NCBI RefSeq assembly: GCF_033153115.1
Contig: NW_026889805.1
Span: 7,812,001 to 7,876,000 of the forward strand
From: Saccostrea echinata
Lineage: Eukaryota
DNA: 64,000 nucleotides
Direction: 5' to 3'
Shown piece by piece: positions 39,372-54,550 of this stretch (within the stretch, counting starts at the first letter, position 1; each line of letters starts with the position of its first letter). The notes under the pieces are model-generated. The model worked only from the letters and a program-made list of their open reading frames with translations. It had not been told where the DNA came from and did not search any database. The translations under genes were made by a program, and so were the position numbers.

Positions 39372-41752
39372 TCACAAATGAAAATGTGCAAAAAATGGTT
39401 CTAAAACAAACATGCAGTTCTCTTTTGACAGCCAGTAATAGGCCAGAAGTTTGAACTCCAGGGCTCCCAGGATCATTCCAAACACTACATCGCTGAAATA
39501 ATGTCTACCAAGGAGAAGTCGGGATAAGGAAACCACAAGTGCCCAAAGGACAACCAGTCCAAGTATAGGGGCCTCTAAATTTGCTTTCTCTGAGGAGAAG
39601 TAAGCTAGCATGATAGCCCTGGAACAATGACCTGATGGGAAGGAGTAGTTATCGACTGAGACCGTAGCAAACATATCAGATTTGTTAAGTGCTGGTCGTT
39701 CTCGCTGAACAAGCATCTTCAGTACAGCAATAATAATAAGATCTCCTATCAGTCCTGGAAAAGAATATGTTAGGAATTTATACATGTGTAAATTTTAAAA
39801 ATAAAGTGTGACAATAAAAATAAATAAATTTTGAAGAAATAACAAAATCAAGCACATAGTATTGGGGGGTTGGGGGGGGGGGGATTGGCCCTGCATATTT
39901 TTTTTGAAGAATACTTTTTGCTGTGTCAAATTAAGAAAGGAAATTTTCATTCAAAGGCCTGTTGCCTCTTCCTCCTTTCATTTGGTCAGAAAGAGAGAGA
40001 CCTTCTACCACCCCATCGTCGGAAACCCACGGTCGGTCTCGCTTCTCTTACCTCGAGGTAAGAGAAGCGAGACCCACCGTGGGTTTCCGATGATGCTACC
40101 ACCCCTGTCTAACAGTAATATTTTTTTGTGCAATATATGATAATGAATTTCTGACCATGGCCTTTGACATTTTTACCTCGCAATCAATCAGGTTTTTCTT
40201 CTAGTCAATGGGAGTTCTGATGTAAAATTCTACTGCAAAACTAAAGACCATGCAAATTTTCAATATTTATAATTTAATATGTTTTCTTCATATTTTGTAC
40301 TGTTTTATGGCTGGACCTAGAATCAGGTGCTCTAACCATTGAGCTATCCATGGTCAATATAGCCAAAACGACAATATTCCCTCCTCCTTCAAGAGTCTTT
40401 GCCCTCAAAGACCACAACCCAATCTATATTCTCTAGATTACTTTCATCTGCAAGTTTAGGAGTGGTCAACAGCACCAAATGAAAACAAGGAGGAAAATTT
40501 ATGGCTGGATTGGGAATCAAACATAGAACCCCTGCCTACTAATCAGGTGTTCTAAGCAATGAGTTATCAGTTTATATCTGATCTGGGTTATCATATCCCC
40601 AATAGGCTATTATAGTACATGTAATGCTTATAGCCAAAACTGAATGGGTATATAAACCATTTAAGAAATTAGTCCCATCCTGTTTTGGCTGAGAGTATAT
40701 ATGATTTTTTTTTTAAATGTGGTAACTTTTTTTAACACTCAGTAAGCTAGTTTAACTGTGTCTCTGGACAATTAAGCCCTCACTTCAGTTAGAAATGTCC
40801 CACACAGTTACAATAGAGCAACTAGCAAAATGCATGGAGCGAATCTGCTCCAACACAATTTTGGAGAATGCAAAAGGAGATGCACTGAAAATAACTACCA
40901 AATTAAAAATAACCACCAAATTAGTATATCTTTTTGAGCTTAAACATGTCTTCTACCCCCAAAAATAATCCATATTAAGCAAAAATTCAACATATTATCT
41001 CAATTTTTTTAGTGCTTCAAATTTACACACTATGTTATCATATTTTAGCTTTCTGAGAGCCTAAATAAAAATTATCCGCCTTTGTTTTGTTTTGCTATGC
41101 CAACATACAGAACAAATTCTATTGTTAAACAGTGGGTCCATGGAACAGTATCATTTCAAAGATTATAATGTAATTCTACCTATAGGGAACAAGTCTCAGT
41201 CCTTATGACCAGAAAATGTATATATGTCATTATGTACATGTTTAAAAATATATTTGGAGTGTTTTAGCTTCAAATTTTTGGACTTGGTCGTAGTTTGCAA
41301 GTAATTTTTTGTTGCTGTAAGGGTTCTTTTGCCGAATTAGAAAAAAAAAACAGCTTCAGTCCAAATGAAATGATAGGAGCTATATAACTTTCATGACTCT
41401 GCAGTCTAAAGTCTTCAAGAAATCAAACTGCACAGAGTATTGAATTCTTACCTATTAATAAGTTCATAAGGATTTCTAAATGTTCATGCTTATGAACAGA
41501 CAAAAGCAAACCAACAGTTCCTAATAACCACGGAATCCCGTGACATGAAATTTCCAGGACTTTCATCAGGGGTCTTAAACTTCCCAGTTGAGAGTTTGGT
41601 CGGGCACAAATACTGCATTTCTGAGTCAACTGGTAATCTATTGATGAGATCGATCGACCAAAAGAGTCCATGGATTTCATTATTTTTACATCGGGGGTGT
41701 CTTTCCTATGCCCTCCATTTGGTCGCCTTTTTCTTCGTTGAATGGCTGACAT
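39372..41752 (-). CDS. PLPP6: PAP2-family lipid phosphatase, PLPP6/PLPP7 (PPAPDC2/3) type, ~227 aa
   Basis: Exons 41752-41452 and 39754-39372 with a phase-1 GT-AG intron. LEISCHGIPWL plus PAP2 motifs KMLVQRERP, YSFPSGH and SRLLLGRHYFSDV. Confidence 0.88.
40014..40095. mobile_element. 82-bp spacerless palindromic mini-element with 9-bp TSD CTACCACCC
   Basis: 41-bp arms with 2 mismatches. TSD at 40005-40013 and 40096-40104. Confidence 0.85.
40305..40570 (-). mobile_element. tRNA-derived SINE remnants (tandem)
   Basis: Two CAGGTGYTCTAA-CA-TGAGYTATC heads plus a GTCTTTGCCCTCAAAGAC body shared with ~27560. Confidence 0.5.
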
Positions 41753-48400: not shown

Positions 48401-50740
48401 ATTTGGAAGTCCCCAACCACTTCTTCTTTTTAAAGTATTTTACCCCTGATATCTCGAATCCTTGGATATCTTTTTTTCTCGGTCTCATCGAGTTCAAGAT
48501 AGTGAGGTGTGACTGTATATATTCACACACATGTATAAAACCCATTATTACAGGGTCGATTATTTTTCAGGTTTCTTTGGTTGAAAAGGATGTTCATCTT
48601 CTAAACTTTGAATGCGATTGTTGGATGAATTCATGACAGGATTTGCTGTAACTGTGTATTTTTATATTACATTAATAACCATCAATGTATCAAATAATAA
48701 CAGATATCTGTCCATATATCAGAATACAGCACAAATACTGATATGCCTGGCTTTCTAAAATAATTCTAATACCCCTCTTTCAAATCTATTATCAAATTTA
48801 GCACAGGCAATCAGTGTAATGTAGTAGATTTTCACAAATTATATCAATATTGTTCTGAAGCATTGTAAATATTGGTGATTTTGATTATGTTGATGTAAAA
48901 TCTATTAATGAAAATCTCACTTATAGTGTAGCAGTTAGAATTCCTGTTTCTTACTTTGAATCTAGATGGTTATTGTTTAATAAGTAATATAACCATTTAC
49001 TCTATCTAAAGTAACCTCATGAAAATAGGATGCTTTATTCTGGAAGGAGAGATTTGTTTGCTTGTCTTTACCTGTTAAACACTGGTATTGGTAAAACATG
49101 AAAATTTAACTCCATAATGCCAATACTAAATAAGGGACCATTTTTTAAAACAAAAATGAAGGGAACTTCAAATTAAGAACAAATAATTTTGATTTACCTT
49201 ATAAATAATGCCAACAATTGTTGTTCCTGTCTTGTAAGCAGTAGGGGCTTTTATTCCCTTTTCTTCAAACATTTGGTTCCTGAAAATAGAACAACAGTGC
49301 CAATAACCTAATAACATAATGCCTGATTGAAGTACAATGTAAATTCACTAATTAAATTTCCGTGCCATTTAATTTTCATTGATTTGTGTTATGAAGATCC
49401 CAAGAATTTATATCAACGAAAATTTGACCACACAAAATTAAGTGATTTTACAGTGTTAGCTAATAACTTCTAAATAAAATGAAAATATCCAAGAGTAATC
49501 TTGAAACTTAAACCATGCCACCTTTGCTAAGTGCATTTATGATTTGAGTGATATTCATGTCAGTTCACATCAAATATTCCAGATTCAGGTTTTCAGGTTT
49601 TACCTTTTCAGGGGAAAATACACTGCATAGTTAGGCCAAAAAAAATAATAGTCTTGTTTCCTGCTACCCGACCTACCCTATTTTTTGCACCCGACCCTTA
49701 AGTTTTTTTTAAGTTTTGGAAGAAAAAAAATCGAGAATTTCCGGAATTTCATCGTTCTGTCACCATAATCAGTTTTCGTGTTAGCACAAAACAAGCATTT
49801 CATGAAATTCTTGTTTTAAATATGGACTTTCATAAAATACCACTTGAGTTGTGCATAAAAAGACATGAAATTCAATTTTAAAAGACAATATTGACCTGTG
49901 ACATGTTTAATTTTATCTTGTATTAGTTCATATCCAAAAAATGCTGTCAGAAAAAAAAATAAAATAAAAATATAAAATAAAATAATTTTCCTACCTACCT
50001 ATCCTATTTTTTGCAGGCTGGTAGCAGGAAACAAGACTATTATTTTTTTTGGCCTTAACTTTCTATAACAATAATATTCTTGGTCTGACACTATTTCTGA
50101 TTTTTAAGTAATATAATCATGATATGATTGTGTAATTATGTACACATCTGATTCAGTTGAGGAGACAGAATTTATAAGAAATGCAATTCACTGACAAAAT
50201 GCTCCAGTACTGGAGAAAAATTATTGATAGAACCCAACAGTGTGTCTTACACATTTTTCTTTTCACAAGAGCTGAATGTATTGATTTTACATAATGCGCA
50301 GTGTAATTCATAAATCTTAGCGTTTAGCGTGCTTAGCTACAAATTCATTGGGTGGTTCGTGTTTTGCATAGAAAATAATATTAGAGAAAATTCGAACTAT
50401 TCTAAAAGGAGAGATATTTCATGTTACCATGCCTTCTAGAGTAGTTTTAAAAATATTTATCTTGAAATAACATTATCTTTGAATAGCACAACTAAAACAT
50501 CAATCCCAGCTGACAATAAAACACTTTTTTCTTTTATAAAATTGCATTGTCATACCCTACCGGCAGTACATCATTATTTAACTTATAAAAGGTGTGATAC
50601 AGATGCTGGACTACAAAAGAAGATCAAACAAACGTTTAACTATAAATTCTGACTTTTATAATAACAATATATGCATACCGACGACAGTTTTCGAATGAAA
50701 AACCACCAGTTGGTGGTTCGGCAAGCAGAGTCGACGCCAT
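45450..50740 (-). CDS. PSMB7: Proteasome subunit beta type-7 (beta2), 276 aa
   Basis: Exons 50740-50679, 49279-49198, 48287-48190, 47921-47781, 47644-47529, 47313-47255, 45852-45701, 45570-45450 (831 nt). Propeptide [11 protein letters not shown], cleavage site KTG|[50 protein letters not shown]. Confidence 0.97.
46130..47230 (+). repeat. Degenerate HINE-like tandem repeats in a PSMB7 intron
   Basis: Recurrent AAGTAGGTCA / TGATTCTAAGCCT blocks; 3' part resembles the HINE 3' blocks (GTTCTTGAGAAGAAGATTTT). Confidence 0.5.
49634..50054. mobile_element. PIF/Harbinger (Tourist-like) MITE with TTA TSD
   Basis: TTA|GGCCAAAAAAAATAATAGTCTTGTTTCCTGCTACC ... GGTAGCAGGAAACAAGACTATTATTTTTTTTGGCC|TTA; ~35-bp TIRs. 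Confidence 0.88.
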
Positions 50741-50961: not shown

Positions 50962-52130
50962 GCCCTAACCTTTGGAGCCTGATTAGTGCCTAATCTTGGA
51001 GCCTAATTAGCGCCCTAATTATGGCGCCTAACAGATGTTCTAAATGTATAAGGTGTCATGACACCTAACGATGGTGCAGCGGCTATAATACTTGGAGCCT
51101 AACGCCCTAACAGGTGCCCTAACCATGGAGTCTAATGCCCTAACCATGGCCGTAAGACCCGGGGTGGGGAACGGGGGGGCTGTGTCCCCCAATAATTTTG
51201 CCGATATATAGATTACTATAGTAAACAAAGATACTATATGCGTGTGTCCCCTCAATAGAAACGCCTTTTTGCCGAGGTTTGTCAAGGAATTTTTGGTAGA
51301 TGATGATGACCTTTTTTCTTTGTTTGTCAGGAAATTTTTGGTGGTGCCCCCTCAACAGTCAACTGAAAAATGTATGGCTGTGCCCCCTCGAACTGAAATT
51401 GTTTCCTACGGGCCTGCTAACAGGTGCCCTACCGATGGAGCCTGATGTCCTAACAGGTGCCCTAACTATGGAGCCTAATGTCCTAACAGGTGCCCTTACG
51501 ATGTAGCTTAATGTCCTAACAGGTGCCCTTACCATGGAGTCTAATGTAGTAACAGGTGCCCTAATGATGGAGCCTAATATCCTAACAGGTGCCCTTACCA
51601 TGGAGCCTAATGCTCTAACAGGTGCCCTAACTATGGAGTCTAACGCTCTAACAGGTGCCCTAATGATGGAGCCTAATTAATGTCCTAACAGGTGCCCTAA
51701 CGATGGAGCCTAATATCCTAACAGGTGCCCTAAGCATGGAGTCTAATGTCCTAACAGGTGCCCTAAGCATGGAGTCTAATGTCCTAACAGGTGCCCTAAC
51801 GATGGAGCCTAATGCCCTAACAGGTGCCCTAACTATAGAGTCTAATCTCCTAACAGGTGTCCTAACAATGGAGCCTAATGTCCTAACAAGTGCTGTAACC
51901 ATGGAGTCTAATGTCCTAACAGGTGCCCTAACGATGGAGCCTAATGCCCTAACAGGTGCCCTAACTATGGAGTCTAATCTCCTAAAAGGTGCTCTAACGA
52001 TGGAGCCAAATGCCCTAGCAGGTGCCTTAACGATGGAGCCTAATGCTCTAACAGGTGCCCTGACTATGGAGTCTTATCTCCTAACAGGTGCCCTAACTAT
52101 GGAGCCTAATGCTCTAACAGGTGCCCTAAT
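50962..52130. repeat. 33-bp minisatellite upstream of PSMB7
   Basis: Unit CTAACAGGTGCCCTAACGATGGAGCCTAATGTC, >20 copies. Confidence 0.92.
51145..51416. mobile_element. MITE inserted in the 33-bp minisatellite, 5-bp TSD CTAAC
   Basis: CTAAC|CATGGCCGTAAGA ... TCCTACGGGCCTG|CTAAC. Removing the element and one TSD restores a repeat unit. Confidence 0.8.
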
Positions 52131-52238
52131 GACGTTAGGTGTCAGATTTTCAGATTTTACTAAAACCAGGAGACATACATCTCATAGGTATAAATATATT
52201 ATACATATAGTACACAATAGAACATTACATGAGCGAGA

Positions 52239-52899
52239 TATAATACACAGTTATGGAATGGGTACGAGGGAAATAGCAAATTTATGGTTCCCCGAGGGAG
52301 GAAACTATTTCCCGAGGCGGCGAAGCCGCCGAGGGAAATAGTTTCCTCCCTCGGGGAACCATAAATTTGCTATTTCCCGAGTTCCCATTCCATAACTGTT
52401 TTATTATACCGAAACAATCATAGACGATTTAATTTTTTCACCAGACATTCCGACATTTAAAAAAAAAAAAAAAAAACCAATGTAGAGGCAAAATCACAAA
52501 TACATGCGGTTTAACACATTGTTATAAGTAATGCATCGTGTCCTAAAACAATTAAATTATTTTTAAAAAGTATTTTCACTGACATTTCGAAGAATTATCG
52601 TTGCCTTCATTTCGCTAGAATCCAAGTATGATTTTGACATCGCATGTCGAAATGTTTTGACGTCATAGTTACATTGCTAATAACATGACGTCACAGACTC
52701 GAGATTTCTTAAACGCTCCGCCCACTGAACACTTTGATTGGTTAAAATTACTAATAAATATTCATGAGGGAGTAGTCCCAGGGAGTAGCTCTGATTTTCC
52801 AGGGAGTAGTCCTCAGATGAGGGAAATAGTCTCTTCTCGTGGAAATAGACAGTTTTATGGTATTAATTTTATACAGAGTAATTGCAGTGGAGGTATAAT
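52239..52899. mobile_element. Foldback/hairpin-bearing non-autonomous element (Crypton-like, tentative)
   Basis: Hairpin 52247-52399 centred on 52323. TATAAT at both ends (52239, 52894). Partial arm copy at ~52820-52848. Confidence 0.55.
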
Positions 52900-52935
52900 A
52901 AAGTATATTATTATATAGTCTATAAATAGCCCCTA

Positions 52936-53464
52936 TATAATCTATACAAACGCAAACGGTTCATAACACTACATATTCACTGGATTTGAAGCCGTATTCA
53001 CCGGAGGGTCAGTGCGCGTGCAGTGGCATTGTGACGTCACAATCAATACCCCAACGTTGAAAACAATATGGTTACAACGACCGGAGCCAGCTGTGTATCT
53101 GAGCAGGAAAAATGTTAGGCAAGCCTATCGCATGATTATTTTCCAAACATTTCGATGTCTTACACACAGCGAAATGAAACGAAGTTATAAGATGTAATCT
53201 GCGGGGTTTTTTTTTTATTTTTTACTTTTCTACGACAGAGGTTCGTTAATGAAAAAAGGTATCGTCATGCAGCCTTCAATTTCTTATTTATTCAAATCCG
53301 TACTATATAATAAAACAATTATGGACTCTTTTACTGGTGAATATGGTTTGTTATTCACCAGAAAAATATCAATATTGACCGAGGCGAAGCCGAGGTCAAT
53401 ATTGATATTTTTCTGATGAATAACAAACCGTATTCACCAGTAAAAGAGTCCATAATTGTATAAT
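52936..53464. mobile_element. Second foldback/hairpin-bearing element (Crypton-like, tentative)
   Basis: Hairpin 53315-53459 centred on 53387. TATAAT at both ends (52936, 53459). TATTCAC motif repeated at the left end. Confidence 0.55.
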
Positions 53465-54550
53465 ATTAAGTATAAATAAATAAAGCATTTATAAATCCAA
53501 CAGTTCATTTGTTAATCTGTTTGCAAAACATATATATTTTCCAAGGTTACACATTTCCTTTGCATTTGAGCTGGTCAACAATTGCATTCGCTTATAAACA
53601 CATGGGCGACAGGAATAATAGATTTTGATGTACTATTTGTGTCAGACGGGTATGATATATACATACGCAGGTAGGTTAAGGCTTCCCGTAGAAAATCGCA
53701 GTGCACTCTGTGCCTTCACTTCGCTGAACTACCAAAATATGACGTCATAATGGAAAATGACGTCAAGTCACTGCCAACTTGAGGTGTCATGACAGGGAGA
53801 GTGTCATGAACTTTACACTTTATTTCAAGCTGCATGTAAAATGCTAGATAGCTATTGCAAAATTCACGGGTCGTTAAAGGTTTTTTAAGTCTTATATGTC
53901 CGAATTTTTTGAAAATACACCGCTTACCTACCCTTGATTGAAATTCAGCATGTTCAAAATGCTTATGAAAAATATACTTTTGAAATGTACTCCGTTTTAT
54001 ACCCGTGGTTGGAGGTAGAAAATATTTTATGTGTATAAAAGAGTCTGGCGCAGGTGATTAATAAGGATTTATCTGAGAAATTTTGTGGAAATCTCTAAGA
54101 AGAGGTTGTTCTCTAACTGAATCTTGCTTGGGAAAAATATGTGTTGGCTTTGTTTTAATACAGATTACGATACTGTGTGAAAAATACCCTCAAATTAGTA
54201 GGTAAGTTGAATTTCTCACGAAATATTTTGTACCCAAGTAATACTATGACTTTTCCCAAGCACATTACGGGTACACAAGGTTACGATGAGTTTATTTATA
54301 TAACAATATGTAAATAATTATTGTGTTAATCAGCTGCGCCAGAGCGATTTATATGAAACGCTTCAAAAAATTATAAATGACCGTCACGTGATCAAGAACG
54401 TCATGTGATATCATAACAAATATGTTGATATATAGCCGAAGAAACCCTATATATAAGTTGGAAGTACTAAAGTTCAATCCTTATAAATTAAAACCAAAAC
54501 CGACCTCGCAATGACATATTATGTTTTGAGCGCATTGAAAAGCTTCGGGA

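Follow-up and report, generated by a model that had tools for sequence, protein, structure and literature searches.

Single hairpin ends of two neighbouring Crypton-type elements in Saccostrea echinata point to a probable integron-like exchange of one folded strand

Two long hairpins in a stretch of 64,000 nucleotides from the genome of Saccostrea echinata (contig NW_026889805.1, positions 7,812,001 to 7,876,000; hereafter the window) each make up the only folded end of one non-autonomous Crypton-type element, and the two separate elements are named F1 and F2. Elements of this type likely move, with a probability of roughly 70%, by exchanging a single, folded strand in the manner of integrons, with replication resolving the junction. 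The superfamily is a known one and the anatomy of these ends was not found in the papers searched; together they make a strong and testable case for an integron-like mechanism.

The initial annotation had described two hairpins with a GAA apex and GA/GA mismatches, and both their coordinates and their mismatches were verified. They are the longest two inverted repeats of the window with arms at most 1 kb apart, and their arms of 75 and 76 nt are 92–93% complementary and enclose a 3-nt loop. Hairpin 1 (52247..52399, + strand) has a GC-GAA-GC loop at 52322–24 and GA/GA mismatches, embedded in CGAG blocks, at its apex (52314–15/52331–32) and in an outer position (52266–67/52379–80), as well as one T.T mismatch; the F1 family carries a third, middle GA/GA block, which is perfectly paired in the window copy (52294–95/52351–52). 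Hairpin 2 (53315..53459, + strand), with its GC-GAA-GC loop at 53386–88, has one CGAG block (53381–82/53392–93) and further T.G and C.A mismatches. The heptamer GCGAAGC, which starts in the window at 52320 and 53384 only, is ordinary by itself (0.73 per control window). An apex scan that allowed any two-by-two loop recovered hairpins 1 and 2 as the only sites in the window, and 30 first-order Markov controls gave one site in total, none of them with GA/GA. Both hairpins are real and well above chance expectation.

It had also been implied that the two hairpins stand on one strand by design, which did not hold for the second. The GAA strand is directed into the element body in 27 of 30 F2 copies and outward in the window F2; since the apex of hairpin 2 is inverted relative to its element, the reading of both apices on the + strand is an accident of the window copy. 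Elsewhere in the window are a palindrome with 41-bp arms (40014–40095), which has neither a loop nor a GA/GA block and is another kind of element, a MITE-like sequence (49633–50055) whose 36-bp terminal inverted repeats match perfectly and lie 351 nt apart, and open frames on the − strand (415–2121 and 39372–39785) with nucleoporin FG repeats and a PAP2 domain, which are probably host exons.

With exact apices, the 923-Mb genome contains 44 matches to hairpin 1 and 111 to hairpin 2, and reversed controls gave none. Matches in most of 30 loci each identify hairpin 1 as the left end of an element of ~660 bp, F1, and hairpin 2 as the right end of a separate element of ~555–565 bp, F2. In the window, F1 is a non-autonomous CryptonA of 658 bp (52244..52901, + strand), with the hairpin at the 5′ end of the + strand, which is the GA strand, and with ends set by empty sites; F2 is a non-autonomous element of 555 bp on the − strand (52908..53462), with its hairpin end at 53462, its tail at 52908, and an end geometry and target that it shares with F1. 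The far ends of both elements are plain tails, the last 10–11 bases of which are the reverse complement of a motif just inside the hairpin. In F1, this inner boundary motif, TTATTATACC (52401..52410, + strand), is conserved across copies, is predicted to complete the folded site, and is the reverse complement of the tail end, GGTATAATAA (52892..52901, + strand), which terminates in ATAA and resembles the left target half; in F2, the inner motif (53303..53313, + strand) is an inverted copy of the tail motif (52908–52918). The outer spacer of F1 consists of 7 nt (52244..52250, + strand; TATACAG in the family, with one substitution here) and would stand opposite a 5-nt inner spacer (52396–52400) once the strand is folded. 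A single hairpin at one end, with no flanking terminal inverted repeats and no target duplication, is not the anatomy of a DDE-type MITE.

The exact boundaries of the elements come from empty paralogs of about nine insertions (L004, L005, L010, L015, L021, L022, L029, L033/L051, and L050), in which exactly the element is missing, from TATACA to TATAATAA; lower-identity empty-site alignments (L003, L011, L013, L016, L024, L030, L038, L058, and L060) were left uncounted. A junction model with an 8-bp spacer and TA microhomology was rejected, as three additional bases are missing from the empty sites and are part of the element. The target sequence, ATAN^N6-NTAT, is cut at one edge only, and nothing of it is duplicated or lost. 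To the left, ATA is present in 27 of 44 insertions, and TAT is present at the fixed offset in 28 of 44, as against 0–3 at offsets of 1–2. The absence of an obvious target duplication, remarked on at the outset, was borne out by the empty paralogs, and neither terminal inverted repeats with a duplication nor a DDE partner was found. The TATAAT direct repeats proposed for the ends, in turn, proved to be part element end and part target, and are no repeat. The two junctions of an insertion differ. On the hairpin side, 53 unique intact ends were compared, of which 48 have the exact 7-mer and five differ from it by one substitution; six copies in which the hairpin end is not intact and three duplicates of a flank are left out of this count. 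On the tail side, the adjoining 6-mer is target DNA and coincides with the donor sequence in one insertion (L007) among 44, and the target spacer agrees with that of the donor in a mean of 2.4 of 6 positions, a slight excess over the background of 2.0.

In the window, one such target of 14 bases holds both F1 and F2, placed back to back. They split a dispersed host repeat (52142..53620) into halves at 52142–52243 and 53463–53620, for which 24 left-flank paralogs were found, most of them running into the right flank. The left half of the target, ATAA for ATAN (52240..52243, + strand), the 6-bp spacer AGTATA between the two tails (52902..52907), and the right half, ATAT for NTAT (53463..53466, + strand), are all host DNA, and the predicted empty site, ATAA-AGTATA-ATAT, is present exactly in 6 of the 24 paralogs and with one base off in three more. 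Both edges of this site were used, the left edge of the spacer by F1 on the + strand and the right edge by F2 on the − strand, and the hairpins are neighbours because the two elements occupy these opposite edges. As a tail junction remains a target at both edges, such elements pile up. Tail-to-tail and head-to-tail pairs are seen at L017/L018, L043/L044, L091, L038, L058, and L154/L155. Directly to the left of the host repeat lies a 33-bp tandem array of 21.5 copies with 84% matches (51417–52129). Among contigs of four public runs, one joint skips F1 and F2 together (52196 to 53471) with loss of the target as well, and is thus no precise empty site. The same contigs contain no evidence of circles, a result to be read with the fact that a head-to-tail tandem junction (L091; apparently also L038, L058, and L154/155) is identical to a circle junction and cannot be told apart from it in contigs.

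An enzyme accompanies F1-type ends at one place. Out of 150 DUF3504 matches, one adjoins an F1 apex (L091:2400–4600), within an element of ~2.2 kb whose tail is 90% identical to that of F1 over 218 bp and whose hairpin end is 87% identical over 175 bp; the F1-type ends of the recombinase-encoding element at L091/L206 are accordingly 87–90% identical to F1. Its open reading frame matches DUF3504 with 40.8 bits, against a Pfam cut-off of 29.7, and it encodes a tyrosine recombinase and no other enzyme. This is the sole F1-ended recombinase copy found and it is frameshifted ahead of the catalytic Tyr region; no intact F1 partner was found, the next copies being fragments of 64–82% identity, except for two short near-exact pieces. 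Among the loci fetched, there was no recombinase element with F2 ends, and one locus (L236) carries the 21-nt apex of F2 on different arms. The early suggestion of tyrosine-recombinase, Crypton-like elements therefore stands for F1, which has a DUF3504 partner with its own ends, and lacks its partner for F2. Judged by sequence, F1 is almost certainly a Crypton, and F2 is very probably one, assigned by the common target, the 7/5 end and the apex; the label CryptonA rests on the DUF3504 profile match, the ends, the catalytic residues and the absence of terminal inverted repeats and target duplications.

In an intact relative, L093, the residues R173, K206, H306, R309, H332, and Y341 are kept in 83–86 of 86 aligned sequences. 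The protein model of L093 (pLDDT 92.8) has the QRICH1 domain as its best structural match, followed by Cre (TM ~0.6) and then by XerA, XerH, the Tn1549 integrase, and IntI. The closest named homologue of one recombinase of this genome is an oyster protein, with 92% identity. A young recombinase family (L205 and L245–L250), with copies 98–99.7% identical, an AAC loop and several GA blocks, is a candidate for transposition studies.

The same end design recurs in other families of the genome. An apex scan for any two-by-two loop was run around 72 DUF3504 hits, and 34 such loops were found within 2 kb of them, 32 of which are GA/GA or its complement, all in the form C-GA-G against C-GA-G (3′ GA/GA, 23; 5′ TC/TC, 5; 3′ TC/TC, 4; other, 2). 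The four 3′ TC/TC cases (L097, two rows of one family at L107, and L151) are the apparent exceptions in polarity, and those at L097 and L107 are read as separate elements whose bodies are directed away from the gene. By eye, about 19 families with unrelated arms were grouped, some of them related and to that extent non-independent, and 17 of these are linked to a recombinase gene. In 12 of the linked families the hairpin is on the 3′ side of the gene and GA is on the antisense strand, and in the other five it is on the 5′ side and GA is on the sense strand. In all 17, whichever the direction of the gene, the GA strand is the one with the hairpin at its 5′ end. For three of the five GA-sense families (L178/179, L180/181, and L185), paired copies and tail motifs establish that these are true element ends. 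Loci fetched later (L236–L255) follow the same polarity rule, with one nested copy pointing away.

What is conserved in these hairpins is their structure. The loop is GNA in 13 of the 19 families, CTTG or TTT in four, GATA in one, and AAC in one, so that GAA is not the universal loop that it had been taken for. At the base of the hairpin, with spacer lengths read by eye, an outer spacer of 7 nt faces an inner spacer of 5 nt between the half-sites in 17 of the 19 families, with 7/6 in one and one unreadable, and in eight other families with copies compared the tail motif is again the inner pairing partner. CGAG blocks and a 7/5 spacer are thus conserved over unrelated arms, which is conservation of structure over sequence as in attC sites. 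In the strict scan, a gene-linked GA/GA hairpin was present at only 27 of the 72 DUF3504 loci. Long open frames at L100–L106, L163, and L164 belong to multi-copy DUF3504 lineages with frames of ~300–470 aa and have no capped GA/GA hairpin of their own detected within several kb; they may have another type of end or be domesticated genes. Another hairpin family, at L098, L159, and L165, has a CGCTTC/GAAGCG apex and an AT-rich, mismatched neck, and lies near recombinase genes without being tied to them.

Whether the GA/GA mismatches are kept or are random decay was raised at the start, and the counts, made by hand with mismatch and loop positions searched as N, show that the family arms keep GA/GA and are not perfectly complementary. 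Of the 144 sites with an F2 apex, the first 50 were scored, and 42 have intact GA/GA and two are perfected; of the 51 sites with an F1 apex, 50 were listed, and 41 are intact and about four perfected; the others carry point changes. Among 29 F1 copies, the outer block is GA/GA in 18 and perfected in seven, and the middle block is GA/GA in 17 and perfected in two, the window copy being one of these. Inversion of the apex is seen in 2 of 30 F1 and 2 of 30 F2 loci (one more in each set was not callable), in addition to the window F2. L008 and L009, with a flank in common, had their outer blocks corrected in opposite directions, and the apex of L008 is inverted; with L021, L037, and L039, they provide a natural record of quasi-palindrome repair, made up of apex inversions and arm-to-arm corrections that followed insertion. 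Processes after insertion erode the mismatches and families retain them, as far as assemblies, in which errors at hairpins are possible, reflect the genome, and selection at transposition may maintain the GA/GA blocks.

The chemistry of such blocks is documented for DNA: GCGNAGC mini-hairpins (PMC13037366) and CGAG blocks (PMC10085684) are described as stable DNA features, and sheared stacking has been described for GA-AG (PMC8163305). With ViennaRNA DNA parameters, neither hairpin has a strand preference (−86.5 vs −86.4 and −70.7 vs −69.8 kcal/mol), and because these energies do not separate the strands, the preference for the GA strand rests on the published oligonucleotide chemistry.

In the mechanism proposed here, the GA strand would fold either in a replication gap or as an arm of an extruded cruciform, both of which are compatible with the data, and its sheared G.A pairs and capped loop would favour it over the TC/TC complement. 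The flanking ATAN with the outer 7 nt would then pair with the inner motif and its 5 nt into a recombinase site with a bulged spacer. The recombinase would exchange only the GA strand with the double-stranded site at the tail, at the left edge of the spacer, and release a single-stranded circle. This circle would refold and exchange one strand with a new ATAN-N6-NTAT site, and replication would resolve the junction. Tyrosine recombinases act on two inverted half-sites around a spacer of 6–8 bp and normally exchange both strands (PMC4792948), and their cut leaves a 3′-phosphotyrosine and a 5′-OH on the spacer (PMC5871717). From this polarity and the cut at the left edge, it follows that the cut strand reads ATAN^N6, which is the GA strand.

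A single exchange resolved by replication would need no spacer homology and would always place the target spacer on the tail side. Ordinary double exchange is disfavoured, because it needs matching spacers, and these are absent here. The inference of a folded strand is supported by a polarity that is independent of transcription, by a 7-versus-5 spacer that makes sense only with paired arms, and by insertion at one edge without spacer homology; with one exchange of a folded strand, the donor spacer would be expected to stay fixed and the target spacer to be one-sided, and the 7/5 bulge at the cut, the complementarity of tail and inner motif, and the strand-selective blocks would likewise be accounted for. 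Extended to the whole group, it is fairly probable that the CryptonA elements of eukaryotes use a tyrosine recombinase on single strands and have converged on integrons in this respect. In such a system, sheared CGAG blocks and capped loops would select the strand that forms the hairpin, the 7/5 bulged site would be built with the flanking target, the exchange would take place at one edge of any ATAN-N6-NTAT, and replication would finish the reaction.

Among the alternatives, it is unlikely, though the best placed of them, that the hairpin does fold as DNA but serves as a signal for replication, priming, or protection on a single-stranded circle, or as a cruciform by which the end becomes exposed, with recombination proceeding by another geometry. 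Mini-hairpins are known from priming sites of single-stranded DNA phages and resist nucleases and SSB (PMC13037366), bacterial SE elements are circularised with a strand bias by tyrosine recombinases (PMC9345347), and the CGAG blocks lie 20–70 nt from the cut, beyond the reach of the core complex. Against a hairpin that is only a signal, the fold sets the cut exactly at the conserved 7/5 bulge, between target-like half-sites, in 17 of 19 families, and the tail motif matches the inner pairing partner in the eight other families compared. A double-stranded cut-out and paste-in of the Tn916/Tn1549 kind, with a non-homologous crossover of 5–7 nt and the hairpin as an accessory binding array, is improbable too, even with a very similar architecture, in that Tn1549 has the target TTTT-n6-AAAA and a heteroduplex circle (PMC5871717), its integrase is among the fold matches of the L093 model, and its route likewise needs no spacer homology. 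It predicts that some insertions would have the target spacer next to the hairpin, and at the tail a spacer that is foreign or comes from the donor. A foreign spacer was found in none of the 53 intact hairpin ends; the empty sites place the target spacer at the tail, and the in-register CGAG blocks, the polarity, and the 7/5 asymmetry would be left unexplained.

The published model of Goodwin, in which a double-stranded circle recombines through a short donor motif with a near-identical target and leaves terminal direct repeats of 4–6 bp that match the target, fits CryptonF and is very unlikely here, where the mismatches would be neutral founder states. Flank duplications of 4 and 5 nt are found in 0 of 44 insertions and of 6 nt in 1 of 44, the homologous donor and target spacers required are absent, and the same mismatch recurs in unrelated arms despite erosion by arm-to-arm correction, of which the seven perfected F1 outer blocks are examples. 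The least likely reading, an RNA hairpin (miRNA-like or a transcript signal) or an HUH element (Helitron or Replitron), has in its favour that the long hairpins give sub-threshold miRNA-type Rfam matches and that Helitron-type elements are also without target duplications, but no Rfam match reaches the gathering score, GA is antisense in some families and sense in others and so follows the element end and not transcription, which argues against RNA, and the partner found for F1 is a tyrosine recombinase, with no HUH partner seen.

The exchange of one folded strand, which is the preferred reading, places F1 and F2 beside several described systems. They are like CryptonA in having a single DUF3504 tyrosine-recombinase gene, autonomous elements of ~2.2 kb and non-autonomous ones of 0.55–0.66 kb, neither terminal inverted repeats nor target duplications, and an animal host; they differ in that their ends, target, and terminal hairpin are defined, whereas two papers on animal Cryptons give no terminal repeats and a double-stranded circle model (PMC3212892, PMC13465315). 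Kojima and Jurka (2011) describe animal Cryptons without terminal repeats, with 'n.d.' in two rows of the supplement (PMC3212892), and the 2026 Glomhopper paper retains the Goodwin model (PMC13465315); the word 'hairpin' is absent from the main texts of both. Eulor5/6 have been linked to Crypton termini, in a paper whose accessible text uses neither 'hairpin' nor 'palindrome' (PMC5753468). No description of a terminal hairpin or a single-strand route for Cryptons was found in the literature searched; a palindrome may be mentioned in Repbase Reports, Dfam notes, subscription papers, or bioRxiv supplements, which lie outside it.

With the recombination of integron attC and attI sites (PMC4792948), the elements share a tyrosine recombinase, structure over sequence, and an imperfect palindrome with unpaired bases, and presumably also the exchange of one strand and its resolution by replication. 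Unlike integrons, they are eukaryotic, encode their own recombinase within the element, use many dispersed targets instead of one attI, and have arms of ~75 bp, and their strand choice apparently works through CGAG blocks and capped loops. The L093 model is nearer to Cre than to IntI, and no IntI homology is shown for the DUF3504 enzyme. Integron cassettes are marked by IntI, attI, and an AAC crossover, which these elements do not have, and they would work like a cassette without being one. Tn916 and Tn1549 have in common with them a palindromic, AT-rich target whose 6-bp centre varies and no need for homology (PMC5871717), but exchange both strands with a variable crossover, whereas the donor spacer here is fixed (53 of 53 within one substitution) and the target spacer is on the tail side. 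An active CryptonF of Chlamydomonas fits the homology-based model, and its copy number also rose (PMC9977147); its clean excision with a net gain of copies resembles what a replicative step could explain, and its 5-bp match between donor and target (CACCG/CAYCG) has no counterpart in F1 or F2.

How animal Cryptons move has been an open question since their ends were reported without repeats (PMC3212892). The ends are now defined exactly, the target has a consensus, the strand and position of the cut are predicted, and recombinase copies that are intact are available, which makes the proposed mechanism testable with oligonucleotides. If it is true, these animal elements would move as a folded single strand and not as the usually assumed double-stranded circle, and their scarless, homology-free insertion would make them a candidate insertion tool. 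The sheared G.A blocks would be a natural case of selection on non-B DNA structure in animal genomes. Folded single-strand recombination, which has been described for bacterial integrons and the phage CTX, would then also exist in animals, and in the lineage that is ancestral to the ZMYM and QRICH1 genes.
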